Source: Squalus acanthias | Taxonomy: Eukaryota | Direction of reading: 5' to 3' | NCBI GenBank assembly: GCA_030390025.1 | Contig: CM059430.1 | Span: 61,628,001 to 61,692,000 of the forward strand | DNA: 64,000 nt | Shown here: piece after piece, positions 1 to 55,308 of the stretch | Position numbering within the stretch: position 1 is the stretch's first letter | How the letters are laid out: every line of letters begins with the position of its first letter | Program-made: the position numbers and the translations under genes | Notes under the pieces: model-generated | Databases searched by the model: none | The model's input: only the letters and a program-made list of their open reading frames with translations | What the model was told of the DNA's origin: nothing

Positions 1-639
1 CTCCTTCATCGCATTCCCTGCTTTCGTATGTTGCTGCTTTTAATTCCCAGCTGTGCCTGGACACGCGTTATTCTTTCCCAAAGGCTAACCTATTGCTCTC
101 GTGGAACTGTGAGCAGCGGAGGCAGAAATTATCAGCAGTTCTTTACCTGGCCATTAAAAACAACATTCAAAATCATAGAATAATAGAAATTTACGGCACA
201 GAAGGAGGCCATTCGGCCCATCGTGTCTGTGCTTTTAAATAATGTAATTACCTTGTTTATTTTTTCTATTTTCCACCCACACGCGGTGCCGTTTAGAGCA
301 CGTCAGCATCAATATAAATAGACTCTCAGACACACTCACAACTGCATAAATAATCAACTATTATTAAATTCAAGAAACGTTCTTCAATTATATCCTTGCA
401 TTGTGATTCGACAATAATTATCAAAACAATCTTACATTAAATCATTCTAGGACTGAGGCAAACTTTCCTCAATTTTAAATAACTATGCCGTCATTTCAGG
501 ATGTCACAACATATTAGGTACAAAACTTACATTTGTGTTTAACTTTCATTCGGCGATATTCTTTCTCTCATGATTATTGTGTATGTGTAATTGTGCACTT
601 TATCTTTTCTATATTAAAATTACCTAATATAAGTACAAA

Positions 640-960
640 AGACCATCGGAAATAGGAGTAGGAGTAGGCCATTCGTTCCCCCGAGCCTGCTCCGCCATTT
701 AGTGGGATCATGGCTGATCCGATTTTGGCCACTTTCCTGCCCGCTCCCCGTAACCCGTGACTCCCCGATTGCTCAAAAATCTGTCAATCTCCGCTTTGAA
801 TATATTCAATGATTTAGCTTCCACAGCTTTCTGGGGTAAAGAATTCCAAAGATTCACGACCCTCTGAGAGGACAAATTCCTCCTCATCTCCGTCTTAAAT
901 GTTGACCCCTTATTCTGAGACTATGCCCCATCATTCTAGATTCCCCCACGAGGGAATTAA
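640..960 (-). mobile_element. CR1/HER1-type LINE 3' fragment
   Basis: Typical CR1 3' UTR (aggagtaggccattc…gagcctgctccgccatt) and the end of ORF2, matching other copies in the window. Confidence 0.8.
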
Positions 961-1098
961 CAACCGATTACTTAAATCATAACCGATGTCGCAGTGAATC
1001 GTTTCCACTGCACTTAATGTAGAATGATATTGATATAAAAATACTACTCTTATTTATATGAATATCTGAATGAAAACCTTCGAACCGTCTGCACTCAC

Positions 1099-1130
1099 CT
1101 GATGTCCAATACTCTCTTGCACACATTTCA
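1099..1130 (-). CDS. Probable exon 5: 32-nt cytoplasmic micro-exon of the VJ-C1 gene
   Basis: tttattcag|…cag|gtgagt; phase 1 to 0, reads VKCVQESIGHQ. Same length as the candidate paralogous exon at 24701-24732, and both are preceded by ggattta. Confidence 0.5.
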
Positions 1131-1436
1131 CTGAATAAATCCACATCTTAAGGAACCCATGGGTTTGGCACCGACCCATACATATCAGAAGATGCCAGGT
1201 TGGATTGCCTGTCAGTTTTATGTTAAATGATCACAGTTCCGGCAGCAGTTGAAACGCTAAAACTGGCCTAAGCATCCAGGGAGAGGAAAAGGGCAATTAG
1301 CCTGCCAACCCAAAAATGACCCGCTTATTCCTACTCTCTGATTTCTGTCCATTAACTAATCCTCAATCCATGCTAGTATATTACCCCCAATCCCATGAGC
1401 CCTAATTTTGTTTAATAACCTCTTGTGTGGCACCTT

Positions 1437-2249
1437 TATGAAATTTAATACAGAGAAGTGTGAAGTGCTGCATTCTGGCATAAGGAACAGGGAGAGGCAA
1501 TATAAACTTAATGGCACAGTTTTAAAGAGTGTGCAGGGACAGAGGGACCTGTGAGTTAGTGTGCATCGGTCCCTGAAGGTGGCAGGACTTATTGAGAGAG
1601 TGGTTGCAAAGCATATGGGATCTTGGGCTTCATAAATAGAGGTATTGAGTACAAAAGTAGAGGAGTTATGCTGAACGTTTATAAAGCGCTGGTTAGGCCA
1701 CAACTGGAGTATTGCATCCAGTTCTGGTCACCACACTTTAGGTAGATATGAAGGCCCTTGAGAGGGTGCAGAGGAGGTTTACCAGAATGGTACCTGGGAT
1801 GGGGGATCTCAGCTACAAGGACAGGTTGGAGAAGCTGGATTTGTTTTCATTAGAGCAAAGGAGGTTGAGGGGTGATTTGATAGAGGAGTACAAGATTATG
1901 ACGCGTTTGGATAGGCTAGATGGGGAAAGGCTGTTCCCACTAGTTCATGGTACAAGGATTAGGGGACACAGATTTAAGGTTTTGGGCAAGAGATACAGGG
2001 GGGTCGTGAGGAAAAACTTTTTTACGCATCGAGTGGTGATGACCTGGAATTCGCTGCCGATGGAAGTGGTGGAAGCGGAGACACTCAATGTTTTCAAGGG
2101 AGGCTGGATAGGCACTTGAGGGAAATAAACTTGCAGGGCCACGGGTTAGAGCGGGGGTGTGGGACTGACTGGGTTTCTCTACAGAGAGCCGGTACGGACT
2201 CGATGGGCCGATGGCCTCTTTCTGTGCCGTATGACTCTATGACTCCATG
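1437..2249 (+). mobile_element. 5'-truncated CR1 nested in the older CR1
   Basis: RT C-terminus (LERVQRRFTRM…RRLRGDLIE), (GACTCTAT)n-like tail, and ACCTT duplicated at 1432-1436 and 2250-2254. Confidence 0.88.
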
Positions 2250-2808
2250 ACCTTATCGAATGCCTTCTGAAAATCCAAATACACCACATCCACTGGGTCC
2301 CCCTTATCTATTCTGCTCGTTTAATACTCAACAAATTCTAACAGATTTGTCAAACACGATTTCCCTTTCATAAATCCGTGTTGACTCTGCCCAATGCTAT
2401 TATTATTTTCTAAGTGCCCTGTTAACATTCCTTAATAATAGTTTCTAGCATTTTCCCTACTACTGATGTCAGGCTAACTGGTCTGTAGTTCCCCGTTTTT
2501 CTCTCCCTCCTTTTTTAAATAGTGGGGTTCCATTTGATACCTTCCAATCTGCGGGAACCATTCTAGAATCGATGGAATTTTGCAAAATGACAACCAATGC
2601 ATCCACTATCTCTATAGCCAACTCTTTCAAAACCCTAGGATGCAGGCCATCAATTCCAGGGGATTTATCGGCTTTCAGTCCCATTAATTTCTCTAGTACT
2701 ACTTTTTTACGAATACTAATTTCTTTCAGTTCCTCATTCTCCCCAGACCCTTGGTTCTCCACTATTTCTGGGAAGTTTTTTGCGTTTTTCCGTGAAGACA
2801 GACACAAA

Positions 2809-3563
2809 GGGCCGGTTTTTCCGACCCCCATGGGTGTGTACGATGTGTGTACGCACCCAGAGGGGCCTTGCAAGTGTCGGGTTTAGGCATGCAAAGCGCA
2901 TGCGCTAAAACCCGGCACTTCCGACCTGTCAAGAATTCTCTTGACAGATCAGCTGCCTGCCCGGGAAAAGGGCTTCAGCAGGCAGAGTTGCGCTTTCTGC
3001 ACAACTTCCACACGCTAAAAGCCTATAAAAATCTTATGCCTTGTAAAACATGGGTGAATGCCTGCTTTTACCAGCATAAGAGATTTAAAAAATAATTTCA
3101 CTCGTTTATAATTTAAAAATAGTTTAAAAAAGGTAAGTTTATTTTTAGCCCCGTAAAAAGCTTTAATTCTTTTTAAAAAAAAATTAAATTTTTGTTTAAA
3201 ATATTTAATTTAATATAATTTTAACTAATTTTAAATACGTGATGTTTTGTAAAAAAATATTTAATGTTTAACTGTGTTTTTTAAGTGATCCTCATTCATA
3301 CTTTTGACAGATCCATGCGTAGATGCCTGTCAAAATTGTGAAGGGGGATTCCCTTCCTGGATTGGTTCTGCATAGTCCACGTGATCCCAGGGGTGCTTGC
3401 GTACCGCATGCTCCCCTGGAATACCTGAGCCTCTGCGCATGTTGGAGAGCAGAGGCCCAGGATCAGAAGTCTCGGGACCTATGGAGCCAGCAGGTAAGTT
3501 CGTAGATTTTTTCCGATCAGAGGCATCCGCACGTAGGAAGCCTCCGATTGGAAAATACAGCCT
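2809..3563 (+). mobile_element. MITE family A (Harbinger-like, about 755 bp)
   Basis: Imperfect TIRs GGGCCGGTTTTTCC / GGAAAATACAGCCT; 3-bp TSD AAA splitting CR1 sequence; AT-rich core; second copy at 43480-44233. Confidence 0.8.
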
Positions 3564-4429
3564 AAAGTATTTGTTTAATTTCTCTGCCATTTCCTTATTC
3601 TCCATTATAATTTCTCCTGTCTCAGTCTGTAAGGGACCCACATTTACTTTCGCTAATCCTTCCCTTTTTACATACCTAGAGAAGCTTTTACAGTCTGTTT
3701 TTATGTCTCTGGCTAGTTTACTCTCATATTCTACTTTCCATTTTTTAAATCAAGTTCTTGTCCTCCTTTGCTGAATTCTAAAATCCTTCCAATTCTCAGG
3801 CTTACTACTCTTTTTGGCAACATTATAAGCCTCTTCCTTTGATCTAATACTATCTTTAACTTTTCTTGTTAGCCAAGGTGGGGCCACTTTTCCCGTTGGG
3901 TTTTTGTGCCTTAAAGGAATGTATATTTGTTGTAAATTATGTATTAATTATTTAAATGCTAGCCATTGCTCATCCAATGTCATACCTTTTAATGTAGTTT
4001 CCCAATCTACCTTAGCCAACTCGCCCGTCATACCTACGTAGTTTGCTTTGTTTAGATTTAAGATCGAGATTTGGATTTAACAAAGTCACTTTCAAACTCA
4101 ATATAAAATTCTACATATTATGGTCACTCTTCCCTAAAGGCCCCTTTACTGCAAAGTTATTAATTCTCAGTGGCCACGTGAGAAATATATGGAGAAGGCT
4201 GTGGACATCCCAGCAAGAATCCGCACTTTGGGAAGAGGAGAAAACAGGAGAAAATGGGAAAGTAACCACACGAAAACAGCTCACTCTGAGAGGCATCTAC
4301 ACCAGCTTAAAGAATTGTCCCAGAATACCAACCCGCAGTTTTAGCTGATATTAATGCAATAATGAATAAGAGCACTCGGAAAGTGGCACCTGTGTTATGA
4401 ATTAGTCAACCATACATATAAGCCTTAGA

Positions 4430-4870
4430 AAATACAAGACAGAAGTTGCATTTATGTAGCACCTTTTATCACGACAGGACGTTCCAAAAAATATTTCCAA
4501 AGGACTATAGGACGTTCCAAACAATAATTGAAGTACTTTTGAAGTGTAGTCACTGTTGTAATGTAGGGTAAAGCAGTAGCCAATGTGCGCACAGGCAAGC
4601 TCCCACAAAAAGCAATGAGATAAATTACCAAATAATCGGTTTTAGTAAAGTGGATTGAGGAATAATTATTGGCCAGGACGCAGGGGAGAGCTCCCATGCT
4701 CATCTACGATATACGCCATGGGAACTTTTACGTCCACCCAAGAGGGCAGACGGAACTCCCTCAGTGCTGCGCTGAAATATTAGCGTGGATATTGTGCTCA
4801 AGTCTCTGGAGTGAGAACATGAACCCACAGCCCTCTGACTCAAAGCGAGGAGCTAGCAATATGCCAAGGC
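4430..4870 (-). mobile_element. Deu-domain SINE (SacSINE1/AmnSINE-like), degenerate
   Basis: Recognised from memory of the Deu-core segments (ttttacgtccacc…gagggcagacgg; ctccctcagt), with a decayed tRNA-like head near 4800-4870. Confidence 0.65.
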
Positions 4871-5004
4871 GCAAAATTGCATCCGATGTTCAGAATTATC
4901 CTGCAAGAAACTGAATTAAATATGAAAATTGTCGTGTTGAAGTATCATTTTTCTATGTTGTCAGCAATTTGGTGGCAAAGCGTTTTAATTGTTAATCTTA
5001 AATT

Positions 5005-8000
5005 ACATAGAAGCATTGAATAGTTCAGCACAGAAGTACGCCATTCAGCCCATCGAATCTGCGTAGGCTTTTTCGAAGAGCAATACTGTTATCTCCACTC
5101 CCCCTTTTATTCTCCTTCAAGTATTTATCCAATTCTCTTTTGAAGGCTACTATTGAAACTGTATCCACCTCCCTATCAAGCAGTGCATTCCAAATTCTAC
5201 CCACTCGCTGCATCAAAATATTTTACATAAGAAATAGGAGCAGGATTGGCCATAGGCCCCTGGAGCCTGATCCACCATTCAATAAGACCCTGGATAATCG
5301 TCGACCGCAAATCCACTTACCCACCTGATCCCCACATCCCTTGATTCCCTTAGAGTCCAAAAAATCTATCGATCTCAGCCTTGAATATACTCAATTATTC
5401 AGCATCCACAGCCCTCTGGAGTAGAGAATTCCAAAGATTCACAACCCCCTGAGTGAAGAAATTTCTCCTAATCTCAGTCCTAAATGGCCGACCCCTGAGA
5501 CTATGCCCCCTAGTTCGAGCCTCTCTAGCCAGGGAATACAGTCGCTCAACATTTACCCTGTCACCCATCTCAGAATATTATATGTTTCAATGAGATCGCC
5601 ACTCATTCTTCTAAACTCGAGAGTGTTTAGTCCCATGCTACTCAATCTCTCCTCATAGGACAACCCTATCACTCCAGAAATCAATCTAGTGAACCTTCGT
5701 TTCACCCCCTCTAAGGCAAGTATATTCTTCCTTAGGTATGGCGACCAAAGCTGTACACAGTACTCCAGGAGTGGTCTCATCAAAGTGCTGTACAATTGCA
5801 GCACGACTTCCTTACTTTAGTACACCAACCCCCTTGCAATAAATGTCAACATACCATTTGCCTTACTAATTGCTTGCTGTATCTGTACATTAATGCTCTG
5901 TGTTTCGTGTACAACGACACAAAAACCCTTCTGAACACCAGCATTTAATAATTTATCACCACTTAAAATATTCTGTTTTTCTATTCTACCTACCAAAGTG
6001 AATGACCTCTCAATTCCCCACATTATACTCTACCTGCCACCTTCTTGCCCATTCACTTAACCGGTCTGTATCCCTTTGCAGACTGTTTGTGTCCTCCTCA
6101 CAGCTTACTTTCCCACCTAGCTTTTATTGTCAGCAAACTTGGATACATTACACTTGGTCCCTTCATCTAAGTCATTAATATAGATTGTAAATAGCTGTGG
6201 CCCCAACACTGATCCCACATGCTCTTATCTTGTGTAACAACCTTTCGTGTGGCACCTTAACATATGCCTTTAGAAAATACAAATATACTACCTCCACTGG
6301 TTTGCCTTTATCTAACCTACACGTTACATCAACAAAATACTCTAATAAATTTGTTAAACACGATTTCCCTTTCGCAAAACCATGTTGACTCTGTCTAATC
6401 ATATTATGATTTTCTAAGTGTACTATTAGCAGTTTCTTAATAATAGATTCTAGCATTATGCCGATGACTGATATCAGGCTAACTGGCCCGTAGCTCCCTG
6501 TTTTATTTCACCCTCCATTCTTGAATAGTGGTGTTACATTTGCTACCTTGCAATCCACTGGGACCATTCCAGAATCTAGGGAATTTTGGAAGATCACAAT
6601 CAATGCATCCACTATCTCAGCAGCCACCTCTTTTAGAACCCTAGGATGTAGGCTATCAGGTCCAGAGGATTTGTCAGCTTTTAGTCCCATTAATTTCTCC
6701 AATACTTTTTCTTTACTAATATTAATTACTTTAAGTTCCTCACTCTCATTAGACTCTTGGTTCCCCACTATTTATAATATATGTTTTATTTCTTCTACTG
6801 TGAAGGCAGTTACAAAATATGTGTTTAACGTCTCTGCCATTTCCTTATTTCTCATTATAATTTCTCCTGCCTCAGCCTCTAAAAGATCCACATTTACTTT
6901 CGCCACTCTCTTCCTTTTTACATACTTTTAGAATCTCTTACAATCTGTTTATATATTTCTTGATACTTTACTCTCATATTCTATTTTCTCTCTTTATTAA
7001 ATTGTGGTCATCCTTTGCTGGTTTTTAAAAGTCTCCCAATGCTCGGGCTTACTACACTTCCAGGCAACATTGTAAGCCTCTTCTTTTAATCTAATACCAT
7101 CCTTAACCTCTTTAGTTAGCCACGGATGCATCAACTTTTACCGTGGAGTTTTTATTTATCGATGGAATGTATAATTGTTGAGAATTATGAAATATTTTTA
7201 AATGTTCGCCATTGCTTATCTACCATCATATATTTTAATCTAATTTCCCAATCTACCTTAGCCAACTCGCCCCTCATACATAAGAGCATAAGAACACAAG
7301 AAATAGTAGCAGGAGAAGGCCATTCGGCCCCTCGAGCCGACCCCGCCATTCAATAAGATCATGGCTGATCTGACCTTGGCCTTAATGCCACTTTCCCGCC
7401 CGCTCCCATAACCCTTGACACCCCTGTAGCTCAAATATATGTCTATATCCGCCCTGACTATATTCAATGACACCGCCTCCACAGCTCTCTGGGGTAGAAA
7501 ATTTCAAAGATTCACGACCCTCTGAGAGAAGAAATTCCTCCTCATCTCCATTTTAAATGGGCTATGTAATTGACTTTATTTAAGATTAATACTCTAGTAT
7601 CGGAATAAAGTATGTTACTTTAGAACTCAACGTGAAATGCTATCATATTATGTTCACTCTTCCCCAGAGGCTCCCTTACTATGAAATTACTAATTAACCC
7701 TGTCTCATTACACAAGACAAGATCTAAAATAGCCTGTTCCCTGGTTGGTTCCACGACATATTGTTCTAGGGACTTGTCTCAATTGGATTCCCTGCACTCG
7801 TTTTCCAAACTACTTTTGCCAATTTGATTTGTCCAGTCTATATGAAGATTAAAGTCCCTCACGATTATTGCAGCTCCTTTGTTACAAGCTCCTCTTATTT
7901 CATGATAAAAACTCTGTCCAACAGTATAGCTACTGTTGGGGAGGGGACGTTAAACTACTCTCACCAGTGTTTTCTGCCCCTTGTTATTTCATTTCTCCAC

Positions 8001-9845
8001 CCATACTAATTCTACTTCCTGCTCTTCTGAGCCAAGATCCTTCCTCACTATTGTCCTTATGTCATCCTTTATTATTAGGGCTACCCCCTCCTTTTGCATT
8101 TTGTCTGTCTTTTCGAAACGTCAAGTACCCTGGAATATTTAGTTCCCAACCTTGGTCAGCATGCAATAACGGCTTTCTAATGGCTATTAGATAAAACCTG
8201 TTTATCTTTATTTATGCCATTCATTCGTCTGTTTTGTTATGAATGCTTTCTGCATTCAGATAAAGCGCCTTTAATTTTAACGTTTTATTATTTTTTCCTG
8301 ATTTGACCTTATTCACTGATGCATTACTCCTGTCCCTTCCTGCCACACTCTGCTTATCATTACCCAAATCACAACACTGCTCTAAGGCCTTGACTTTTCT
8401 CTATAGATTTATAAATTTCCCCTCTCCTGCACACTCTCCACTTTTTAGGTTAAAGCTCTGTCTACAGCCCTAGTTATTCGATTCACCAGGAAACTGGTCC
8501 CAGCTGGTCTAAGTGGAGCCTGTCGCAACAGAACAGCACCCTCTTTCCCCAGTACTGCTGCCAATGCCCCTTGAATCATAACCCCTATCCCCCACACCTC
8601 ACTTTCAGCTATGCATTCAACTCTCATCTGTTTGACCCTATGCTAATTTGTGCTTTTCTCAGGTAGTAATCCAGAGATCATTACCTTTAAGATTCTGCAT
8701 ATTAAGTTCGACCCGAGCTCCTCAAACTCCCTCAGCAGAACCTCATTCCTAGTTCTACTTATGTCATTGGTTCCTACGTGGAGCACGAAAACTGGATCCT
8801 CCCCTCCCACTGCAAGTTCTTCTCCAGCTGCGTCGGGATACCCTTAACCCTGGTACTGGGCAGGCAGCACCACCTTCGGAACTCCTGGTCGTCGCCAAAG
8901 AGAACAGTATCTATCCCCCTGAATAAACTGTCCTCTACCAGGACCACATTCTATTTCACTCCCCTCACTTGAATGGCCTCCTGTACCACGGTACTGTTGT
9001 CCGTTTGCTTATCCACATTGCAGACTTTGCCTTCATCTGCACAGGCAGCAAGAACCTAGTACCTGTTGGATAACAGCGAATGCTGAGGTTCCTCCAGCAC
9101 TGCACCTGACTTGCCTGACTCACAGTCACAGCCTCCTGTCCATTAACACGAACCAGACCTGTGCAACTACCTAACCTAAGGGGTGTGACTGCCTCCTAGA
9201 TCAAAGTGTCCAGTTAACTCTCCCCTCCCTGAATCCCCGCAATGTCTGCACCTCGGACTCCAGCTTAGCAACTCTGAGCTGAAATTCCTCTAGATGCAGA
9301 CACTTACTGCAGATACGGTTGTCCAAGATCCTGATGTTCCCCACAAACTCCCACATGCTGCAGTTGCGACACATCTGCTGCCATCGCTATATAACCTCGT
9401 TTTATTTATTTATTTAATTAAAGTTTATGTAATTAATCAACGTAGCTTATATTCTTTATTTTTAACTAATTACTTGATCTAAATTAAGTTAGAGGTATAT
9501 TAAATTAAAGATTTACCTTACCCCGCCAACCCTCCCTCTGCTGTGACACCACTTTGCGATTTTTCTGCCGTGCTGCTCTCGGCCTCGCCGTTTTCTTAGA
9601 TATCAGATCTATTTGTTTACCTGAAGTATACTATTGTCTTCATACTTTGATAGATGTGAAATTAAGCAATTAACTATGATTCCTCGGCTCCCGCCACTCC
9701 TCACTCTATACGGACAATTATGTCATTTTTTTAGTTTTTCCCTCCGTTTGTCTGATATCAGCTGCTGCGCTCTGCCCCGCTCCTTTTAAATCACTGGTGC
9801 TCGGGATCCCGCTCTTTTTAATCAGCTGCTGCTCTCTGCCGTTGC
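5005..9845 (-). mobile_element. Near full-length decayed CR1 LINE, plus adjacent and nested 3' fragments (5005-5225, about 7281-7560)
   Basis: 5' UTR about 9400-9845; ORF1 CxxC…CxxC/leucine zipper (CRNCSMWE…CSKCLHLEEFQLRVAKLE) about 9240-9375; esterase region ending AVDRALT*; fragmented EN/RT ORFs; 3' tail near 5225. Confidence 0.88.
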
Positions 9846-9952
9846 TTACAAACAAACAGCTGGCAAAAATACATTTCTCATCTCCATAAAAGCAATCCTA
9901 TCTGTGTGTGTACTTCGAAGTAATTTCCTGAATTAATGAAGCGTTTTCTTAC

Positions 9953-10066
9953 CTTCAATGGAAGTTATTTTTACGTGGTCCACAATAATTCCAGTCAGTG
10001 CAAGAATTACCATAAAACCCAGAACAAGCCGAGCAATCATGAGGAGCCGGATGCTGAAACTGTGAC
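9953..10066 (-). CDS. Exon 4: transmembrane exon with an intramembrane Arg
   Basis: Acceptor ttgtag| and donor G|gtaaga; 114 nt, phase 1-1; GHSFSIRLLMIARLVLGFMVILALTGIIVDHVKITSIE. Confidence 0.85.
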
Positions 10067-10194
10067 CTACAATGTTGGATTAAAACCAAGATATAAAACT
10101 GTTGTATAGAAGTATTATCGAATGGAAGCAACAGTGATTGGTTTATACAGGGGCATGGGGTCCATTGAATGTTTACTTTAAACCGAACTCCATT

Positions 10195-10900
10195 GGGATC
10201 GATTTCAACTTGCCTAAATCGGCGTTAACGGTGCGATAATGGCCTCAAAATGGGATCGGTAGACTTAGCAGCATGTTAACGCCTACAACGGAGCCTTCCA
10301 CTGTCAGAGAGGGCCTGTTGCTCAGGGCTATCGCCTTTGTCTCAGGCAGTAGGCTACTCTTCACACAAAAAGAACATACTGCACATGCTGGAAATCTGAA
10401 ATAAAAGCAGAAAATGCTGGAGATACTCAGAAGGTCAGGCAGTCTGTGAAGAGAGAAACACTCTTCATATCCAAATCGAGGTTCTATGATGTACATAGGA
10501 TCCCGATGGCCATTTCAGGACAGAGTTGGCACGCCCTGCACTCTGTGGCCAGTTTAACTAGCGAGAGAGATAAAGAGATCTGAACATGTACATTTACATT
10601 ATTTTCGCGTGACCAGGCAAAGCAGGAGTGCTCCTATGGGCCCCATAAAGATAATCTGGGATGCTGCAATCCGGGCACCCCCCGCCCCACTACCTGATCA
10701 TGACACTCCCGGCTTAGCTTGCTGCCCACCGGACTGTCTCCAGATACCTGCGAAGTTTATCGGGCCGCCTTACATGCCTTAAGGTTCCTCATTTTCATAC
10801 AAGTAGCCTGGCGTAGACTCCCTTCATGGGAGACTGGTTCTCACCAGCACAGGGGCCAAGTGCCAAATTGTTTCCATCAGCAAAGTAATTTCCACCATTC
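10195..10900. mobile_element. Degenerate MITE-like element containing a Penelope terminal fragment (about 10366-10460)
   Basis: GC-rich ends resembling other MITEs here; internal gctggaaatctgaaataaaagcagaaaatgctgg matches the 25.9-kb repeat. Confidence 0.45.
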
Positions 10901-11445
10901 CTTAATTTTACTCTAACATCTACAGTGATAAAAACGGTTCCGAACATTTCATAACCTGTTTTTTGGTCTAAAGAGTCCAGAGCTACAGTAATAGCCAGAG
11001 TTGATTTAGAAGCAATGCGTCTTGCTCCATCAATCTATAAGAAATTGAGGAGAGAAGTTGCTCAGTGGATGGAGGAAATCCAGCTAAGAGTTTCCTTATA
11101 TTTTTGGAAGATATTTGAAAAAGTTCTGCGCATGAGGCTTTTGAAGCAAATTCAGCCTCATGGCATTCGGGGAGAATTGGAAAGTGATAATTAAAGGCGC
11201 TGTCTGGGGAGCAGTAGATTTCTAGACAGAGCTCTACCTGGTCTATTTTAGGTTCAATGCTTTCTCGTCTATTGATGATCTATTTGGACTAGCCACTTCT
11301 AGTAATAGTCCTAGATGTACTGATGGCGTCAATACATAGATAGAAGAGATGTAGGTTAATAACACACCAAGAAATCTGGGTCATCGAAGAAATGCCCTTG
11401 AAAGATGTTCCCGGAAGTTCCACACATAATCTGTCCAAATCGTAC

Positions 11446-11742
11446 CTTGCTTAACGGTGTAGCTGACATTGGCGGGCACCAGAAGAGAGACATGAGATAC
11501 CAGACATGTATAAACAACTCCGCTCTGGGTAGGCTGTGCTTCTTCCAACGAGCTGGAAACCTCAAACAGTCCCTCCGCATTCCTGTTTTTCACAGTTGCT
11601 ATTCCGGTCAGATTTTCGACATCATCTCTTCGCCAGGAGATTTCTAAATGCTCCGGGTAAAAGGCACTCGTTTTACACTCGAGTTTTAGAGAAGTCGCTG
11701 AAATCCCTTCGACAAGAGCGATTTTCAGGGGAGTTGGGGGAA
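11446..11742 (-). CDS. Exon 3: Ig C1-set domain
   Basis: Acceptor ttttctttcctgttaaag| and donor G|gtacga; 297 nt, phase 1-1, open. Reads VPPTPLKI…LECKTSAFYPEHLEISW…GLFEVSSSL…YTCLVSHVSL…YTVKQ, with the C1 hallmarks C-x4-FYP, W and YTCxVxH. Confidence 0.92.
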
Positions 11743-13304
11743 CTTTAACAGGAAAGAAAAGTTTTTTTCAATTTAAAGGAACACATTCTCATTTGCCTAC
11801 TCTCGTTATGCTGATACAGTCCTACTGTCACAATAGTTATCCGCGCTGTCGTTTTTTTTAAACTTCCAGTTTGCATTTATTTTATAAATTGTTTTACCGC
11901 GCACAGCAACATGACGGGATGTATTGGAAACGGAACGCAAAGTGGGCAAACATGCAGGGAGGCAAACGTCACTGTTCTGAATGGAGTATCAGATCCTGGC
12001 GCGGAATTGTGGTTGGCAGCAGTGACCCCGAGTGAGGTTCCTGTCCGAATATATCGGAGAGAGCGCAACCCAGTCTGCACGAACAGTGGAATCGTTTCTC
12101 GTTATTCATTAATAATCTTTGGAGTATGAAACATTTTGTGTGTTTATTTAAAAATTGGTCGCTTTTTAGATATTTCGTAGATTGCAAATATATTTTACAT
12201 AAACGGTGAATATTGAGAAGAATAAATCTTACCAATATATCGAAATATCTCCGATGTCTGCACAGATTACAGGTAGGATGCTGTTATATCTATAGATTAA
12301 AATTCGTGCATTACAGTTGCTAACTCAGCATTTCAGTGTCTGTGTTGGAGATTTCAGATCGTGCAGCTTTCAATAAATGTACTTTCCCCAGAGCGCGAAC
12401 CGAGGGCTGGAATATTTTTCACGTCATGAAAGGGTTATATTGGTAATGATGTATATCTGTGTAGATCACAACATCCATACAGATGAGGGAAACCGAATAG
12501 GAAATCCTAACTCAGAGTGCATGTCTTATATAATTCCAGGGGTTTTGTCCTTCCCCAGGTCTATTCGGTCTGTTGAACACGTTTTACCTGAAGAAGATTC
12601 TGCTTATATCAGTCCTACAATCGTCTTTTACTAATGTGAACCTTTGTCCGCTAGAGCTACAGTCAGCTGGAAGTAGAGTCCCTTATTAGGTTTGCATTGT
12701 TTTGTCAGTTTATTACAAACAATCTCCTTAACATCTTTTCTTTAAATGTTTACTTTTCCGACTTTGTACTAATAGCAAACATTTAAATCAGGGGTATTAT
12801 TAACTTGAAAAATTATTTTAGCCTTTATTCCCAGCAGCACCGTGTTGACTGCCCAACCAAAGCTCAGAATTCCTCCATTCCTTTACCACTGATCTGTTTA
12901 GGTTTAATATTTAATGCAGTATAGTTTTCGTGGAGGAGGAGGAGGACGAAAGTGTTCTCTTAATCTGCTGCCGTAACCTCAGTCTGGGATTGGTAGAATG
13001 TTAATAGAAATCATGAATTACAAGTACGGGAGCCCTGGCGTTTATAACAAGTTCGGCGATAATCTGCCCGTACTTTACAGGTTGTGAGTGTATGAAAGAA
13101 AGTCCAATTGGCGTCAGACAGTGTTTTAAACAGGAGCACTGGGTTTCTGCACTCTCCTGCAAGCTCTAGGACTTGGGGTGGAATCTAGCATTGAGGGTAA
13201 GACCAACACTTCCCCTTTCAATGGGCTATAAGATTCCTTCGTGAAATGAGTTTGGCCGTCTCAAAAAAGTTCTCAATGGAAGCAAGTGCACAGCCTAAAC
13301 TGCG

Positions 13305-13520
13305 GATATAGGAACAGCAGGAGGCCATTTAGCCCCTCGAATCTGCTCCGCCATTCAATTAGATGGTGGCTAATCTGTACCTCAAATCCATATGTCCACT
13401 TAACTCCATATCCCTTGAGAACCCCAACTAACACAAATCTATACATCTCAATCTTGGAAGCTCCAAATGTCCCATCATCCACAGCCTTTTGGAAGAGAGA
13501 ATTCCAGATTTTGGACAATT
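13305..13520 (-). mobile_element. CR1 3' end fragment
   Basis: IWNSLFQKAV…KIEMYRF followed by the CR1 3' UTR motif. Confidence 0.75.
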
Positions 13521-13895
13521 CTGTACAGAAAATATTAGATTGGCAATTTCAAGTAGTGGAGCCAAAATGTGCCCTGGTGTGTGTAATAACCACGATTGTA
13601 GCAGGACATTGTTCTGTTGAGTTGTGATGAAGGCACCTTGTTGGGGCGGCGTAGCTGGCCTTTAATGTTGTATAAAATACCTGACCTAGGAGGTGTTAAC
13701 ATTTTTCCATTGTCGCTCCTTGGCACCGCTACTTTGGTGAGAAGGAATGTGACCATCTAATCCCAGTTATTAATTTCAAGCCAAGATTTAAACATTTATA
13801 ATATTTCAGTATTTTGCCTCAATAATAATTGTAACTGCACTTCCAAAAGAACTCATTGGATGCAAAGCACTTTCGAATGTCATGCGGACAATGAC

Positions 13896-14052
13896 GGGGT
13901 GAAATTGATCTGGGGCAGTAGCGCAAAACGGGCGCTAGTGAATCGGCGGGCCGTTGTACACCGGGGTAAATGGAAAAGGAAATCGGGAGAAGCGTAAAAC
14001 GAATTTGCTATCACCTGGTTTTCGTCAAGTAATAAAAGTTGAAATTACCCCC
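13896..14052. mobile_element. Short MITE with Harbinger-type termini
   Basis: GGGGTGAAATT … AATTACCCCC inverted ends, similar to the GGGGDRRAAATTCAG TIRs of the full elements; a related fragment starts near 51879. Confidence 0.55.
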
Positions 14053-14119
14053 ACTATTGAGTTTTACATATATCGCACACTGCTGAGAATCTCCCATTAC
14101 CCGGCACAATGACACTTAC

Positions 14120-14425
14120 CGTACACAGTAAGCTGGGAGCCAGTTCCATCTCCAATAGATTTCTGATGATGTTTTACTTTACAGTAATACACTCCGGCGT
14201 CGGCGATACTCGCATTAAGGAGATCAAATGACCCACTTCCCTTTTTTACATTAAATTGCTTTCTGCTGTCTGGCTCCAGAAATGTCTCCTCGCCCCGTCT
14301 CCGCCAATAAACATCGGGGGCATCTTGAAATATGGGAAATGTGCAGAACATGGCAACATTTGTACTCCTAGCAACTTTAATAAATTTAGGGAATTGATCC
14401 ACTTTAATCGAAGTTCCTTCAGCGG
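14120..14425 (-). CDS. Exon 2: Ig V-set domain with germline-joined J-like G strand
   Basis: Acceptor ttttctgatag| at 14426, donor G|gtaagt at 14119; 306 nt, phase 1-1. Contains B-strand Cys (MFCTF), C-strand Trp (VYWRR), DAGVYYC and the J-like GDGTGSQLTVY. Confidence 0.93.
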
Positions 14426-14639
14426 CTATCAGAAAATAAACAAAAATGTTGACACAATAGTTTGCATACCTTAGAAAAAGAACAAATAAAATGACTTAGA
14501 AATAAAAAAACAAGAAAATTAACCACATTAGTAACACAATAAGAAAAACGGAAGAAAGAAATGTGCACAAAATATGAATTTCTTTTTTAACAATAGCTTT
14601 TTTTCGATAAGCATGGAGCGGTAAGATAAACGAACACAC

Positions 14640-14694
14640 CTCTGTAAAGAACTCCCACCAAAGATATGCAGAAAAGCGCGGAGATCACCGCCAT
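14640..14694 (-). CDS. Exon 1 (signal peptide) of a non-rearranging VJ-C1 IgSF receptor
   Basis: ATG at 14694 encodes hydrophobic MAVISALFCISLVGVLYR; phase-1 donor G|gtgtgt at 14640/14639; splices in frame to the V exon (…LYR-A-AEGTSIKVDQFP). Confidence 0.8.
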
Positions 14695-14699
14695 TCTGA

Positions 14700-15060
14700 G
14701 TGACGAACATTAATCTGGCCACAAGCTGCAAGGAAGGAACAAGCTCCTGGAGCTTTGGAAGCCAGGGCTTTGCACGTGATCTAGAGTGGCGTGTAACATC
14801 ACGAGCCTAAATGTACAATTTCATGTTGATGTATTTCCTTTGTTAAGACAGTATTGTGGGCGGAGAGTCGTGCAGACTGACGGTTTTATGCACCCACTTA
14901 AAAGATCTAGGATACTTGGGTGTATTGTAGTTAGTCGTGTTACTCACACGCAAAAATGCGCGATCTTTAAAGCCATGTAACTTGTTTGACTCCAGATTGC
15001 ACTTCTCTCTTGGCGGAAACGCGGAGAGAACTCTGGACTGTGAGTGCTCATTTCTTGTTC
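14700..15060 (-). promoter_or_regulatory. Putative promoter / 5' region of the VJ-C1 gene
   Basis: Non-repeat, CpG-containing sequence directly upstream of the ATG; E-box CACGTG near 14773 and GC-box GGGCGG near 14858. Positional inference only. Confidence 0.35.
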
Positions 15061-15899
15061 TTGTGGTGATAAAGCGTTATTAATTGTATTGGTGTATTTT
15101 GTTCTGGCTATTCCTACAGCAAACCCTGATCAATGTAAAAAAAAATCTCCTGTCTGTGCATTGAATGCCCGTGCGTCTTTATGCTAACCAATCGAGTGCT
15201 CCATGTTAATGAGCTTAAATGCATATGTCAAAATCCAGCGACTCACATTCTGCTGTAAATAGGAAGAGCCTATTTGTCTGATCCATAGTTGTGCCAATGT
15301 AACAACACTCTTGACTTCAGCTGTGATGGTGAACTGTCGGATGAACTAACTTGCCTAGCTCATCCCTATTAACCTTCTGGTCTTATTTCCTATGAACGTT
15401 GAAACTAACAAATGAGAAAACAAGAGTGAAAGTGGAACGGCAGATCTTGTGGACTATAGTTTTGTTGTGCGTTATAGTGAATCCCCTCATCCTGCTGCCC
15501 GACCATAGCCCCCAGATCCACCTGAATTCACAAATGCTGTCCTAGTGGCTTCTATTAAATGATTGCAGTGTCTACCACAGCTTATAAGTATCCCATTAGC
15601 ACCATCCTCCGATCAAGTACTCCGGTGTGAGTTTGCTTTATATATGTACGTTCAGTGAACATTCATGCTGACACTAAACCCATTCACTATATATCTGTAT
15701 TGTTTCAGATTGCATGCTTGCTTACTATGACCTGGTCGCTTATTTGGTGAAGCCATCATCCTTGGAGTCTTCTGTAGTAGGTGACCTCAGAGAGAGCTAC
15801 TACAGTAGTGGCATGATTGAGCTAAGTGCCCCTGCACTGGACAGAATATTAATCAATTAGGCTTGGGTTGTCATCCATATCTGAAGCAGCCAACTGAAA

Positions 15900-18560
15900 T
15901 GAAGTTTTGTATGTAGTCCAATGTCCGCAGTGTAATTAATAAGGTTGTTGAGCTGCAGGCACAAATTGCTGCATGGGATTATGACGTGGTTGCATTAATA
16001 GAGACCTGGCTAAAATAAAGCCAGGAATTGGTTCTTAATATTCCTGGTTTCCAAGTATTCAGGAATGATAGAGTAAGATAACGCGCAGGGGCCGTGTCAG
16101 CATTGAATAAAGATGATGTTACGGCTCTAAGTCGAAAGTATACACTCGATAGTTCGAGGACTGAACTTATTTGGCTTGAGTTGAGGAACAGAGGGGGAGC
16201 TGTTACACTGTTGGAAGTTTTTTTTATAGAGCTCCAAACAGTGGGAAGGAGATAGATGAGCATATTTGTCGGCAAATTTCAAAGCCGTGTAACAAAAATA
16301 GAGTAGTAATATTAGGAGACTTTAATTACCCGAATATAGACTGGGGAATACATAGTTCTGAGGATAGGGAAGGAGAGGAGTTTCTGATATGTGTACAGGA
16401 GAACTTTCTCGATCAATATGTCTCCAGTCCAACAAGGAAGGAAGCAGTTTTGGATCTGGTTCTGGGAAATGAAGTAGGGCAAGCGGTGTGTGTTACCGTA
16501 GGAGATCATCTAGCTAAAAGTGACTACAACATAATTCGGTTTAAAATAAGTATGAAAAGAGATCAGAAAATATCGAAGGCAAAAGTGCTCAACTAGGGAA
16601 GAGCTAATTTCAGTGATTTAAGGAGGAACCTAGCACAGATATATTGTAAAAGGCGATTGCAGTGTAAAGCAATAACGGAGCAATGGAAGGCATTCAGGGA
16701 AGAGATAGTTCAGGTGCAAAATAAGCATACTTCTACGAAGGGAAAAGGTACAGCATCCAAAGTAAATACGCCCTGGATGACAAAGGAATTACAAGTTAAA
16801 ATAAAACAGAAAAAGAGGCTTTTGACAAATTTCAGGGGCAAGATTCAATTATTAAACAGGAAGTTTATGGAAAGTACAGGAGGGAATTGAAAAAGCTAAT
16901 TCGGGAGGCAAAGAGAGGTTACGAAAAAAGATGAGCAAGCAATATTAAAATGAACCTTAAAACATTTTATAAACATATAAAGCATAAGTAGTTAGCTAGG
17001 GAAAACGTTGGGCTATTAATGGCCCAAAGGGAAACCTTCATGTCGAGGCAGAGGACATGGTTAAACTATTAAATGAATGCTTTGTATCTGTCTTCACAAA
17101 GGAAGATGGAATGCATCCTAGGTTGCTGAAAGATGCAAAGGTAAAAATAGCAGAGGCATTGGTCAAAATATTTCAATAATCATTGGATACAGGTACTGCC
17201 GGAGGACTGGAGGGTTGCTAATGTTATACTACTATTCAAGTTAGGGGAGAGGGATAAACCAGGAAATTACAGGGCAGTCAGCCTAACATCGCTAGTGGAG
17301 AAGTTACTAGAAACAATTATCAGGGACAAAATAAACTTTCATTTGGAAAGGCATGGGTTAATCAAGGAGAGTCAGCATGGATTTGTTAAAGGCAAATCTT
17401 CTCTGACTAACTTGATTGAATTATTTGATGAGATAACAGAGAAGGCTGATCAAGGTATTGCAGTAGCTGTTGTATGAATGGAGTTTCGGAAGGTATTGGA
17501 CAAACATGCGCACAGGAAGCTTATTAAGAAGATGAAAGCCCATGTAATTAAGGGGAAAGTGGCGGTATGGATACACAATTGGCTCAGTGACAGGAAGCAA
17601 AGGGTAGTGGTGGATAGAAGTTTTTCATACTTGGAGGTGGTTTGCAGTGATGTTCCCTAAGGCTCAGTTTTGGGTCAATTACCCTTTTCAATTTTTATAA
17701 ACCACCTAGACTCGGCTGTAGGGAGCAGATATTTGCAGATGATGCGGAACTTGGTAAAGTAGTAGATAGAGATGAGGAATGTTATAGGCTTCGAGATGAC
17801 ATAGACAGGATGGTGAAATGGGCAGAAGCATGGCAGATGGAGTTCAATGAGGAGAAATGTGAAGTGATGCACTTTGGGAGGACATATATGGAAACGGCAC
17901 GATTTTGAAAAGTGTAGATGAGCAGAGAGACCTTGGTATCCATATACACAAATCCTTAAATGATGTAGGACAACTTGATAAGATGGTTAAAACCTCATAT
18001 GGGTTACTTGGGTTTATAAATAGTGGAATAGAATATAAAAAGCAAAGAGATCATGTTGGAACTTTATACTCACTGCTTAGGCCTCAGCTGGAGTATTGTG
18101 GACAATTCTGGGCACCACACTTCATGAAAGATGTAAAGGGCTTAGAAATGATACAGAGGAGGTTTACTAGGATATTACCAGGGATGAGGGACTTCAGTTA
18201 TGAGGAGAAGTGGTAAAAGGTTGGACTGTTCTCCTTGGAACAGAGAAGGTTAAGAGGTGACCTAATAGCGGTTTTCAAGATGATGTGAGGTTTTGATAGA
18301 GTAGAGAAAAACGATTCCCTCTGGCGAGCGGTGCAATAACTACAGGCCATAAGTTAAAAATCATTGACGAAAGATCTAGAGGTTGATGAGGAGTTTATTT
18401 TTCACTCGAAGATGGTGGAAGCTGATGCCATAAATAATTTTAAAAGGTTGTTACGGACAAAAAGCAGGGATGTGGCACTAAGCACGGATGCTTTTTCAAA
18501 GTGCCATCACATGCAGGAAAGGCCGAATGGCCTCTTTCTGTGCTGTAAGTTTCTATGATT
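15900..18560 (+). mobile_element. Old, decayed CR1 LINE ORF2
   Basis: EN (GDFN), ESQHGFVKGKS and LLRPQLEYCGQFWAP fragments with many stops; TTCTATG tail near 18550. Confidence 0.85.
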
Positions 18561-30276: not shown

Positions 30277-33200
30277 CATAAGAACATAAGAACATAAGAA
30301 ATAGGAGCAGCAGTAGGCCAATTGGGCCCTCGAGCCTGCTCCACCATTCAATAAGATCATGGCTGATCTGATCCTAACCGCCAATCTACTATCACAGAAC
30401 CATCTCCTGAACCTAACAGAATTGGACACACGAAATAGGAGCAGGATCAGGCTACATGGCCCCTGGGCACGCTGCGCTACCCACAGGGCCATGACCAATC
30501 CGAACCTAGACTCATGTCCAAATTCCTGCCCGCTCCCCGTAACCCTTAATTTCCTTTACTTCTAGGAAATTGTCTATTTCTGTTTTAAAGTTATGTAATG
30601 ATGTAGCTTCTACAGCTTTTTGGGGCAGCATATTCCATGGACCTACCACCCGCTGAGTGAAGTAGTTCCTTCTCATCTCAGTTTTGAAAGAGCAGCCCCT
30701 TATTCTAAGACTATGCCCCCTAGTTCTAGTTTCACCCATCATCGGGAACATCCTCCCCGCATCCACCCGATCCAACCACTTCACAATCTTATATGTTTCA
30801 ATAAGATCGCCTCTCATTCTTCTGAACTCCAATGAGTAGAGTCCCAATCTACCCAACCTCTCCTCATATGTCCATCCCCTGATCCCCGGGATTAACCGAG
30901 TGAACCTGCTTTGTACTGACTCGAGAGCAAGTATGTATTTTCTTACGTGTGGACACCAAAACTGCATGCAGTATTCCAGGTGTGGTCTCACCAATACCTT
31001 GTACAACTGAAGCAATACCTCCCTATTTTTATATTCTATCCCCCTAGCAATGAAAGCAAACATTCCATTGGCCTTCTTAATCACTTGCTGCACCTGCATA
31101 CTAACCTTTTGAGTTTCGTGCACGAGGACCCCCAGATCCCTTTGTACTTCAGTACTTTCCAATTTCTTGCCATTAAGATAATAACTTGCTCTACTATTTT
31201 TCCTGCCAAAATGCATAACCTCACACTTTCCAGTAATGTATTCCATCTGCCAAATCTCTGCCCACTTACTTAGCCTGTCTATGTCCCCTTGCAGATTTTT
31301 TATGTCCTCCTCACTCACTACTTTCCCTCCCATCACAGTATCATCTGCAAACTTTGATATGTTACACTCGGTCCCCTCCTCCAAATCGTTAATATAGATT
31401 GTAAAGAGTTGGGGACCCAGCACTGACCCCTGCGGAACACCACTAGTTACTGATTGCCAGTCTGAGAATGAACCATTTATCCCAACTCTCTGCCTTCTGT
31501 TAGATAGCCAATCCTCTATCCATGCCAGAATATTACCCCCAATCGCGTGATTTTTTATCTTATGCAATTATCTTTTGTGTGGCAACTTGTCAAATGCCTT
31601 TTGGAAGTCTAAATACACCACATCCACTGGTTCCCCTTTATCCACCCTGTATGTTACTTCCTCAAAGAACTCCAGCAAATTTGTCAAACATGACTTCCCC
31701 TTTATAAAACCATGCTGACTTTGTCCTATTAAATTATGATTATCCCAATGTCCCGTTACTGTCTCCTTAATAATGGACTCCAAAATTTAACCTACAACAG
31801 ATGTTAGGCTAACCGGTCTATAGTTTCCAGCCTTCTGTCTACTGCCTTTTTTAAATAAGGGTGTTACATTAGCAGTTTTCCAGTCTGCCGGGATATTTGC
31901 TGAGACCAGGGAGTTTTGGAAAATTATTACCAATGCATCCACAATCCCTACCGCTACTTCCCTCAAGACCCTAGGATGTAAGCCATCAGGTCCAGGTGAT
32001 TTATCCGCCTTGAGTCCCATTATTTTACCGAGTACCACTTCCTTAGTGATTTTGATCGTGTTTAGCTCCTTCCCCCCCACTATAGCCCCCTGTTTGTCCA
32101 GTGTTGGGATATTCTTAGTGTCCTCTACTGTAAAGACTGATACAAAATATTCATTCAGTGTATTTGCCATCTCCATATTTCCCACCATTAATTTCCCGGT
32201 CTCATCCTCTAAGGGAAAAACATTTACTTTAGCCACCTTTTTTCTTTTTATATAACATAAAAACTCTTGCTATCTGTTTTTATAATTTTTGCTAATTTAC
32301 TTTCATAATCTATCTTCCCTTTCTTTATCAATCTTTTTGTTATTTTTTGCTGTCTTTTAAAGTTTTCCCAATCCTCTATCCTCCCACTAGATTTGGCTAC
32401 CTTAAAGGCCCTTGTTTTTAGTCGAATACCATCCATAATTTCTTTACTTAGCCACGGATGACTGTCTTTTCTTTTACACCCTTTTCTTCTCAGTGGAATA
32501 TATATTTTTTGGAAGTTGTAAAATTACTCCTTAAATGTGCACTACTGATCATGTATCGTCTTACCCTTTAATCTATTTTCCCACTCCACTCTACTCAATT
32601 CCGCTCGCATACCTTCATAGTCTCCTTTATTCAAGCTTAGCACGCTTGTTTGAGATCCAACCTTCTCACCCTCTAATTGAATATGGAATTCAACCATGTT
32701 ATGGTCACTCATTCCAAGGGGATCCTTTACTAGGACATTTTTAATTAATTCTGTCTCATTACACAGGACCAGATCTAAGGTTGCTTGCCCCCTGGTCGGT
32801 TCAGTTACATACTGCTCAAGAAACCCATCCCTAATACACTCAATGAACTCATCCTCAAGGCAGCCCTGCCCAAGTTGATTTGTCCAATTAACATGATAGT
32901 TAAAATCCCCCATAATTATAGATGTTCCCTTATTACAAGCCTCAACTATTTCCTGATTGATACTCCGTCCAACAGCGTTGCAACTGATCGGAGGCCTATG
33001 GACTACGCCCACTCATGCTTTTTGCCCCTTATTATTCCTTATCTCCACCCAAACTTTCATTATCCTGATCTTTTGACCCAATATCATTTCTCTGTATTAC
33101 AGTGATTCCTTCCTTTATTAACATAGCCACCCCACCTCCCCTTCCTTCCTGCCTGTTGTTCCTGATCGTTAAAAATCCTGGTATGTTTAATTCCCAGGCA

Positions 33201-34230
33201 TTGTCACCCTGTAGCCATGTTTCTGTAATGGCCGCAAGATCATACCCATATGTAATTATTTGTGCCATTAACTCGTCTATTTTGTTACGAAGTCTACGTG
33301 CATTCAGATAGAGAACTTTCAAATATGTTTTGTGACACTTAGTTCCTGCTTTTGCCCTTTTTATTACTTTACCTTTTACTTCATACCTTCTGCCCCTTCC
33401 TGACGCACTCTGGTTTTTAATTTCCCCACTGCTACCTAATCTATGATCTTCTCTGTTGTCATTTTTATTATTTGCTCTCTAGGAACCGCCCCCCCACTAG
33501 TTAATTTAAAGCCCTCTCTACAGCCCAAGTTATATGATCCGCCAGGACTCTAGTCCCTGCACTGGCCAAGTGAAGCCTGTCCCAACGGAACAGCTCCCTC
33601 CTGCCCCAGTACTGGTGCCAGTGTCCCAGGAAGCAAAACCCATTTCTCCCACACCAGTCTTTGAGCCACTCATTTAACTCTCTAATTTTATTTGTCCTAG
33701 CCAAATTCGCTCGTGGCTCAGGTAATAATCCAGAGATTATTACCCTTGAGGTTCTGTTTTTTAATTTGACCCCTAGCTGCTCATACTCCTTTAACAGAAC
33801 TGGCTTCCTTGTCCTATCTACGTCGTTTATACGAACATGGAACACGACAACTGGATCCACCCACGCCTACTGCAAGTTTCTTTCCAGCCCAGATGAGATG
33901 TCCTTAACCCTGGCACCGGGCAGGCAACACAGCCTACGGGACTCTCGCTCTCGGCTGCAGAGAACTCTATCTATCCCCCTAATAATACTATCCCCTACCA
34001 CTACAACATTTCTATTTACTCCCCCCTCTTGAATGGCCCCCCGTTTCACGTTGCTGTGGCCAGGTTGCTCATCCTCCCTGCAGTCCCTGCTCCTGTCCCC
34101 ACAGGGAGTAAGAACCTCGAACCTGTTGGACAAGAGCAAGGGCTGCGGCTCCTCCAACACTACCTCCTGGTTCCCCATACCTGCCTCACTCGTAGTCACA
34201 CCGTCCTGTTCATGACCATGGGCTACATCT
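30277..34230 (-). mobile_element. CR1 LINE: ORF1 esterase plus ORF2 with a few disablements
   Basis: GDSIIRG…CCLPGARV; EN (ITETW, GDFN, SDH); RT (QGSVLGP, FADD); tail reading (CATAAGAA)n on the plus strand. Confidence 0.93.
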
Positions 34231-34423
34231 AAATTAATTAATCATGTTGTGTCTGTCACCACCTGCGACAAGCTTAGTCTAGCAACTATTTCCTTCAGGA
34301 CTCGGCCAGATCGGTCAGTAGTGGTGCTACCAAGTGACTCTTGGTGATGCACATTGAAGTCCCCCCACCCAGTTTATGGCCGGCAATTTTTACTGACACT
34401 GGCAATTCCACTGAAATACATCG

Positions 34424-45330: not shown

Positions 45331-45694
45331 GGGGGAAAAATTCAGTCGCGCCCCGTTTGGGGCGCAAATATCGTCCGGGCGCAAAAATTGGCGCCTGGCG
45401 CTAATTATCGCCACTGACTGGAAACTTCACTTTTAACGCCCCGGGAGGTGATTGGAGCGCTAAATCAAGCGCTGCACACCTGTCTTAAGGCGCAAAGGCC
45501 GAGGAGTGAGGCGCTAACTCAGAGCGCGAGCGCAGCGCAGGTGCTGCCAGTTAGCGAGGGAACACAGACACACTGGCGCTGGCCAATTCTTAAAGCGGGG
45601 GGGGGGGGGCGATCTTGCTCCCCAGCCACACCCTGCTCATTGCAGCCATGAATCTCGGCCTGGAGAGACCTGTGAATCCATTTTCCAGCCAAAG

Positions 45695-47848: not shown

Positions 47849-47947
47849 CTAGAAGCGGCTTGCTATCAGCCGCTGACGGACGGCCCTTGCAGTTTCACCA
47901 TTGTGGGCCGCCCTCACGCCTTGGTGCTGCTGCTGATCATCCTCCTC

Positions 47948-47978
<31 letters not shown>

Positions 47979-55261: not shown

Positions 55262-55308
55262 TATGGCAGGGGAATGGGAACCTATGTAGCGAAACAGGGG
55301 GAAGTAAT

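Follow-up and report, generated by a model that had tools for sequence, protein, structure and literature searches.

A germline VJ-C1 gene for a predicted receptor with a transmembrane arginine lies in a large cluster of genes with two types of tail in the spiny dogfish Squalus acanthias

We analysed a stretch of 64,000 nucleotides from Squalus acanthias (GenBank assembly GCA_030390025.1, contig CM059430.1, positions 61,628,001 to 61,692,000), which we call the window and in which positions are counted unless a contig is named. It carries a five-exon gene (the window gene) for a predicted membrane receptor with a V-set domain ending in a J-like strand (VJ), a C1-set domain (C1) and an arginine in its transmembrane (TM) helix:

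14640..14694, minus strand: exon 1, leader; 55 nt, 18 codons plus 1 nt
14120..14425, minus strand: exon 2, single-exon VJ domain; 306 nt, Pfam V-set E 4e-8, J-like G strand
11446..11742, minus strand: exon 3, C1-set domain; 297 nt, Pfam C1-set E 6e-9
9953..10066, minus strand: exon 4, stalk and TM helix; 114 nt, Arg232 close to the outer end, Asp-His at the inner one
10031-10029, minus strand: codon of Arg232, in TM exon 4 near the outer end of the helix
85..146, minus strand: exon 5, short cytoplasmic end without Tyr, then stop; placed by tblastn and conservation

The original prediction, made from the sequence alone, joined the first four exons in phase into an open frame of 257 amino acids (aa). 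This is borne out by the coordinates, by introns that are all GT-AG and of phase 1, and by the Pfam calls, with which the predicted folds of V and C1 are in line. The same prediction took the gene to be intact at four exons; those four stand, but the structure was incomplete. Exon 4 closes at a splice donor and exon 5 (146-85), missed earlier, is preceded by a proper acceptor, giving a predicted product of 277 aa composed of leader, VJ, C1, TM(Arg) and short tail. Exon 5 was located by tblastn with the tail of a Heptranchias homolog, matches the end of the model XP_067853654 and is 90% identical in two paralogs (L034 and L035); because it is conserved, it replaced a read-through tail beyond exon 4, which was dropped. 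A leader exon of 55 nt is also found in five of the six close paralogs checked. The predicted protein lacks any Cys in the stretch from C1 to the TM, and the window holds no family exons beyond the gene's own five. The window gene is real and intact. Three read runs compared with positions 1-14800 yielded repeat-derived contigs only and left the C1 exon uncovered, so they have no bearing on expression.

The J-like strand lies inside the V exon, with a GT donor right after it. As originally proposed, the exon reaches this strand without an intron or a recombination signal sequence (RSS): no RSS was found between the F-strand Cys and the J-like strand of the window gene, while TCR V segments of the same genome, scanned as a control, gave canonical 23-RSS. 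Positions 9000-16000 contain two heptamer-like sites whose nonamers are at least 5 mismatches off. Six of 76 family V exons gave degenerate matches (nonamer with 3 mismatches) in a laxer scan. All six belong to the window gene's subfamily, and the matches sit at the 3' edge of the exon with the heptamer in the downstream intron; they are a sequence common to one subfamily. The loop once described as CDR3-like is indeed the F-G loop before the J-like strand, but its length is fixed, at 11 residues in 68 of the 71 V exons that could be matched out of 76.

The V domain is also short. Its two Cys are 54 aa apart in the window gene, whose structural model (predicted local distance difference test 93) lacks C' and C'' strands, and the spacing is 54-59 in 72 of 76 family V copies, compared to 65-71 in immunoglobulin light chain (IgL) genes, 65-70 in NCR3-like exons and 61-69 in TCR V segments of the same genome. 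The best fold matches of the V model were VNAR, CD79b and NCAM2 at 16-25% identity; VNAR (20-25% identity, Z 14.5) was level with NCAM2, and the likeness of all three to the model is one of shape only. A PDB search with V as a single sequence gave I-set proteins for the most part and was of no help.

What the original prediction missed is that the gene is an Arg-tailed member of a tandem family of more than 100 copies that includes counterparts with immunoreceptor tyrosine-based inhibitory motifs (ITIMs). The V exon has at least 120 matches in the genome, 116 of them on contig C6, and the C1 exon at least 147, 132 of them on C6; these are lower bounds because 150 candidates were scored per exon, and they are exon matches rather than gene counts, some being fragments. 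The C6 matches are found at 57.5, 61.2-62.8, 67.4-68.2 and 72.5-76.9 Mb, in most cases as a V with a C1 following within a few kb. We took a census of 10-kb stretches around 77 V loci, mostly the best-scoring ones, with profiles built from homologs. Thirteen loci had an Arg-type TM exon and 22 had ITIM-like exons; 33 had a neutral TM and no ITIM exon inside the 10-kb stretch, and 9 were unclassed. Five of the 33 neutral loci carry a different Arg near the start of the TM and have no tail assigned to them. Internal stops were seen in 3 of 76 V exons and in 3 C1 exons, with frameshifts in others, and a few paralogs have a second C1 match. Atlas clustering returned only generic V-C1 clusters. Away from the cluster, L141 (C2:108.62 Mb) is a decayed family V exon with stops.

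The closest paralogs of the window gene, with V domains 86-90% identical, include Arg-tailed loci (L015 and L016) as well as loci with ITIM or neutral tails (L013, L017 and L014); L013 and L017 each have five ITIM-like motifs spread over three exons. The DNA shared with the ITIM-tailed copies forms one block:

11438..15248, minus strand: leader-V-C1 DNA block common to the window gene and ITIM-tailed L013 (L017 alike); about 90% identity

This block spans leader, V, intron 2 and C1, with 90.4% identity to L013 and 90.8% to L017. Its upstream limit, 15248, is only the edge of the compared stretch; downstream it stops in intron 3, 8 nt past the C1 donor. Compared to the Arg-tailed L015 and L016, identity carries on through the TM exon. 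The pairs L020/L021 (94%) and L051/L091 also lose identity in intron 3. Because the block ends just after the C1 donor, ectodomains appear to move between tail types.

On a V+C1 tree of 99 rows, 15 of them Arg-type, the Arg label needs 14 changes, 8 of which are forced by strong branches, and the mean for shuffled labels is 14.2. On a TM-exon tree of 66 rows and only 36 columns, the 13 Arg exons form one group (98/98) with a single change. These data suggest, as the simplest reading, one old activating and one old inhibitory tail between which ectodomains were repeatedly exchanged. Both tail types are present in other sharks. A cluster in which nearly identical ectodomains come with either a charged TM or an ITIM tail, as seen here, is the hallmark of paired receptors. 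The ratio of nonsynonymous to synonymous change across six close copies is 0.42 for V and 0.47 for C1, which is purifying selection.

In the Arg-type TM exons the Arg stands at position 3-6 of the best hydrophobic window, and it is invariant in the six exons aligned. The genome also holds two zeta-family TM exons, which we take to be one CD247-like and one FCER1G-like. According to Feng et al. (PMC1440944), partners of FcR-gamma have an N-terminal TM Arg and partners of DAP12 a more central Lys. From the Arg position, this rule and the zeta-family exons, we infer coupling to FcR-gamma or CD3-zeta. The VJ domain of the window gene would bind a cell-surface or microbial ligand, and its outer-end TM Arg would bring in a dimer of FcR-gamma or CD3-zeta, whose immunoreceptor tyrosine-based activation motif would carry the signal; the ITIM-tailed twins would engage SHP-1/2 and hold the same cells in check. 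Modelled as a complex, the TM peptide and two FcR-gamma-like peptides scored 0.12, the mark for a verdict being 0.34, and a PDB search with the TM exon gave 0 matches. Gene conversion or unequal crossover just past the C1 exon has likely swapped ectodomain cassettes from one tail type to the other; such exchange would keep the activating copies in step with the inhibitory ones, probably as a counter to pathogen mimicry.

Taken together, the window gene is an intact VJ-C1-TM(Arg) member of a cluster of more than 100 copies and is likely to belong to the activating side of a paired innate receptor family. Several observations weigh against this interpretation. No tail type was fixed for 42 of the 77 census loci, and the ITIM exons of the census were assigned by position and not from transcripts of this species. 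Of the 13 Arg-type loci, at least 4 appear to be damaged (L018, L019, L082 and L109), so that decay may affect many of the activating copies. Because the Arg label was taken from the TM sequence itself, there is some circularity in how it clusters on the TM tree, which also has few columns. No domain-wide positive selection, and hence no sign of an arms race, was detected across the six close copies. Finally, the evidence on the window gene comes from genomic DNA.

A full-length profile of the family gave 37 matches at E 1e-57 or better, followed by a gap down to E 1e-8; 35 of them are named shark, ray or chimaera and 2 have no visible name. Among the best 150 of 9832 matches, domains of members scored about 90-140 bits and outsiders at most 58 (V) or 54 (C1), and all ten members looked up were chondrichthyan. 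Among the matches listed, close homologs thus appear in sharks, rays and chimaera only; because these are the best 150 of 9832, a weaker relative with both domains from a bony vertebrate, PRARP for example, could have escaped notice. The original prediction was right to place the gene in a poorly known family of cartilaginous fishes and to see in it a VJ-C1-TM(Arg) gene that is germline and does not rearrange. RefSeq models of the family bear automatic names: many are SIRP-like, others NCR3LG1-like, CD276-like or tapasin-like, and some Ig lambda-like or TCR beta-like. SKAR, a skate V-C1 receptor reportedly called SIRP-like, may be a member. A literature search, which missed the most relevant papers, found no description of a shark VJ-C1 paired family, nor did we find this family described in the portions seen of PMC12227049, PMC10751288, PMC11599192, PMC10450919 and PMC3964593.

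Two further features appeared among the homologs. Three database models (P0031, P0140 and P0143) skip the C1 or TM exon, which suggests V-only and secreted isoforms. A separate subtype, kept from chimaera to rays (P0028, P0032/P0033, P0034, P0036 and P0038), lacks an ITIM, is rich in Cys in its juxtamembrane part and carries a CxxC in the cytoplasmic part, which to our mind recalls the CD4/CD8-Lck zinc clasp.

To place the family we built separate V and C1 trees, using controls from the same genome (IgL on C13, NCR3-like V on C26, TCR V segments and UrIg2-like C exons) whose labels are our own, assigned from known motifs and a PDB match. In the V tree (53 rows) the family is a group of its own (97/79). 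It stands outside the group of TCR, IgL, VH and VNAR (95/91) and apart from NCR3-like V, and falls on the side of B7 and the turtle V domains (95/95). In the C1 tree (45 rows, TCR C absent) it is again its own group (99/97), outside the Ig/UrIg2 group and on the SIRP/B7H6-like/tapasin side (96/93). Approximately unbiased (AU) tests rejected only the grouping of the family with UrIg2 C1 (0.024). Other groupings ranged from 0.06 to 0.37: antigen receptors 0.33 (V) and 0.36 (C1), SIRP 0.16 (V) and 0.36 (C1), IgL a borderline 0.06 (V) and 0.066 (C1), NCR3-like V 0.21, turtle V 0.37 and B7H6-like C1 0.15. With family plus UrIg2 C1 alone rejected, the trees do not settle the deep origin of the family.

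These results bear on the suggestion that the product is a TCR/IgL-like chain. Neither tree puts the family inside germline-joined IgL, in agreement with what was first proposed, but the best trees also leave both V and C1 outside the Ig/TCR groups, and with no Cys between C1 and TM nothing favours such a chain. That the window gene is a germline-joined IgL or TCR-derived gene can be called extremely improbable, even given the Ig lambda-like and TCR beta-like names of some models and the borderline AU values with IgL. The true germline-joined IgL genes on C13 have a different exon structure, with WYxQK, FGxG, loops of 6, 10 and 12 residues and a C exon ending Cys-x-stop, whereas the shark family has TM exons, a fixed loop and the shorter Cys-Cys spacing. 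In the window gene no C exon ends in Cys and stop; a WYxQ in framework region 2, FGxG and a variable junction are likewise absent, as are split V and J with RSS and an interchain Cys in the connecting peptide.

Another possibility is that the family is orthologous to PRARP/VJC1 or is the surviving sister of the VJ-C1 gene invaded by RAG. PRARP/VJC1, ascribed to Fu and to Ohta in 2019, are reportedly non-rearranging VJ-C1 membrane proteins with ITIM-type tails, few in number and with no Arg-type activating twins; compared by description only, this plan of VJ-C1-TM plus ITIM tail is that of paralogs such as L013, not of the window gene. Genes of this VJ-C1 kind are treated as possible remnants of the precursor in PMC10751288 and PMC12227049. 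The common VJ-C1 plan, the AU values with antigen receptors and VNAR as a top fold speak for this origin, which we nevertheless consider unlikely: the best trees place V and C1 elsewhere, UrIg2 C1 is rejected and the VNAR match is one of shape. Of the relic idea in the original prediction there remains an antigen-receptor affinity that the AU test does not reject, though the best trees lend it no support. As for synteny, C6 had 0 of 28 proteasome matches, although small unplaced contigs had some, presumably exons like PSMB5/8/9. Genome searches with the MHC_II_beta and TCR-alpha-constant families found nothing anywhere; MHC and TCR C were not placed. At 0.5-31 Mb, at least 26 Mb from the cluster, C6 carries GPI and 6 of 20 classical-cadherin tail matches, markers that in our view fit human 16q/19q12-13.1 and not the MHC.

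The family could also be a cartilaginous-fish branch of SIRP, possibly including SKAR, with one C1 instead of two; we regard this as possible but doubtful. The SIRP family is clustered, with paired ITIM and charged-TM members, a V-C1-C1 ectodomain and a TM Lys in the activating form. Like the shark family, SIRP-alpha and SIRP-beta1 (PDB 2wng, 4i2x) have a single-exon VJ plus C1 in sequence, with paired tails. In a PDB profile search SIRP-alpha (65.4 bits) was level with Ig lambda (65.8) as the best V-C1 stretch; the side of the C1 tree, the AU values and the many SIRP-like names are also consistent with it. On the other hand, the best tree does not join family V to SIRP V as sisters, and a search with the V of a lungfish SIRP yielded at least 26 matches, with not one of them on C6 (best 150 of 320 candidates scored). 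The activating residue is an outer-end Arg here, rather than the central Lys of SIRP-beta1. The shark family further differs in its single C1, shorter V, more than 100 copies and a locus apparently not of SEP/NSFL1C type; SEP-domain matches lie on C8 and C11 and were not assigned to genes, NSFL1C being, we assume, the SEP-domain neighbour of SIRP.

That these proteins are B7H6/B7-type ligands or tapasin-like proteins and not receptors seems very unlikely. The names NCR3LG1-like, CD276-like and tapasin-like, the position of V on the B7/turtle side and the AU value with B7H6-like C1 agree with it, but a J-like GxG strand and exons with ITIM-like motifs or a TM Arg are traits of receptors, and the B7 rows of the tree were picked by likeness to the family profile and sit on long branches.

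NCR3/NKp30, whose ectodomain is V-only, has a TM Arg and, like the NCR3-like cluster on C26, a germline VJ exon with an F-G loop of 11 and a GxG strand. The window gene differs in having a C1, whereas no C1 exon lies within 10 kb of five C26 loci; the two families also differ in Cys-Cys spacing, form separate clades in the best tree and lie on separate contigs. The LILR/PIR, KIR, NITR, CHIR and MDIR families have similar cluster logic, opposing tails and ectodomain sharing; ectodomains of LILR/PIR, KIR, NITR and CHIR are C2-type or V-I, not VJ-C1. The turtle multi-V proteins (XP_037733860 and XP_053904980, automatically named) are the best outside V matches listed, at no more than 58 bits. They and P0112, P0148, P0206 and cluster mates have the same Arg TM pattern and ITIM-tailed twins, but consist of tandem short V domains (Cys-Cys 60-61) with no C1, and a sister relation was neither recovered nor rejected. 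UrIg/UrIg2 (PDB 9dmx) is a shark non-rearranging VJ plus C1 as well, but according to PMC12227049 it has at least three C1 domains, is a homodimer and is MHC- or AgRC-linked. Fc-alpha-RI has the same Arg/FcR-gamma type of TM (PMC1440944), and the MDIRs are skate activating and inhibitory receptors with a CD300-like ectodomain (PMC3031540). By analogy, the family appears to work like SIRP/LILR pairs; it lacks what defines IgL, TCR, UrIg and NCR3 and is not shown to be SIRP.

Several other loci were recorded. An NCR3-like VJ exon cluster lies at C26:13.6-15.5 Mb (L123-L133, L148-L152), partly in tandem, with three exons in one stretch at L151. A cluster of germline-joined IgL genes with differing junctions lies at C13:52.9-54.8 Mb (L145-L147, L153). 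Near-identical C1 exons recur every ~3 kb at L139 (C1615:70000-79999) and L140 (C10:45.59 Mb) and group with B7H6-like C1. A UrIg2-like gene with alternating repeated C exons is found on C3243 (L136, L154), where similar C exons occur at five places. In the window itself, a 392-aa frame at 47849-49027 (minus strand), presumably a Harbinger-like transposase, has a frame nearby at 45518-46012 (plus strand) that we take to be Myb/SANT-like, and a second copy near 41454-42185 (minus strand). Frames of ORF1 and endonuclease/reverse transcriptase type at 54605-58245 (plus strand) and 30512-34241 (minus strand) are, we assume, CR1/L2-type long interspersed element copies with an esterase-like ORF1 and an endonuclease/reverse transcriptase.

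It could be speculated that these genes form an undescribed complex of more than 100 genes, a chondrichthyan equivalent of KIR/LILR/NITR for recognising self ligands, for example MHC class I, its VJ-C1 unit a surviving sister of the antigen-receptor precursor diversified by ectodomain swapping and not by RAG; as a whole this is decidedly improbable. Of the living animals that have MHC, Ig and TCR, sharks are the oldest, and to our knowledge the receptors for self/non-self control by their natural killer and myeloid cells are largely undefined. More than 100 VJ-C1 copies with opposing tails, and homologs from chimaera to rays, are a concrete candidate for that role, one hidden in databases under at least five wrong automatic names. 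The family indicates that an antigen-receptor-like VJ-C1 unit can diversify without RAG, through the number of genes and the swapping of ectodomains. It also provides many new sequences for tests of the antigen-receptor precursor.

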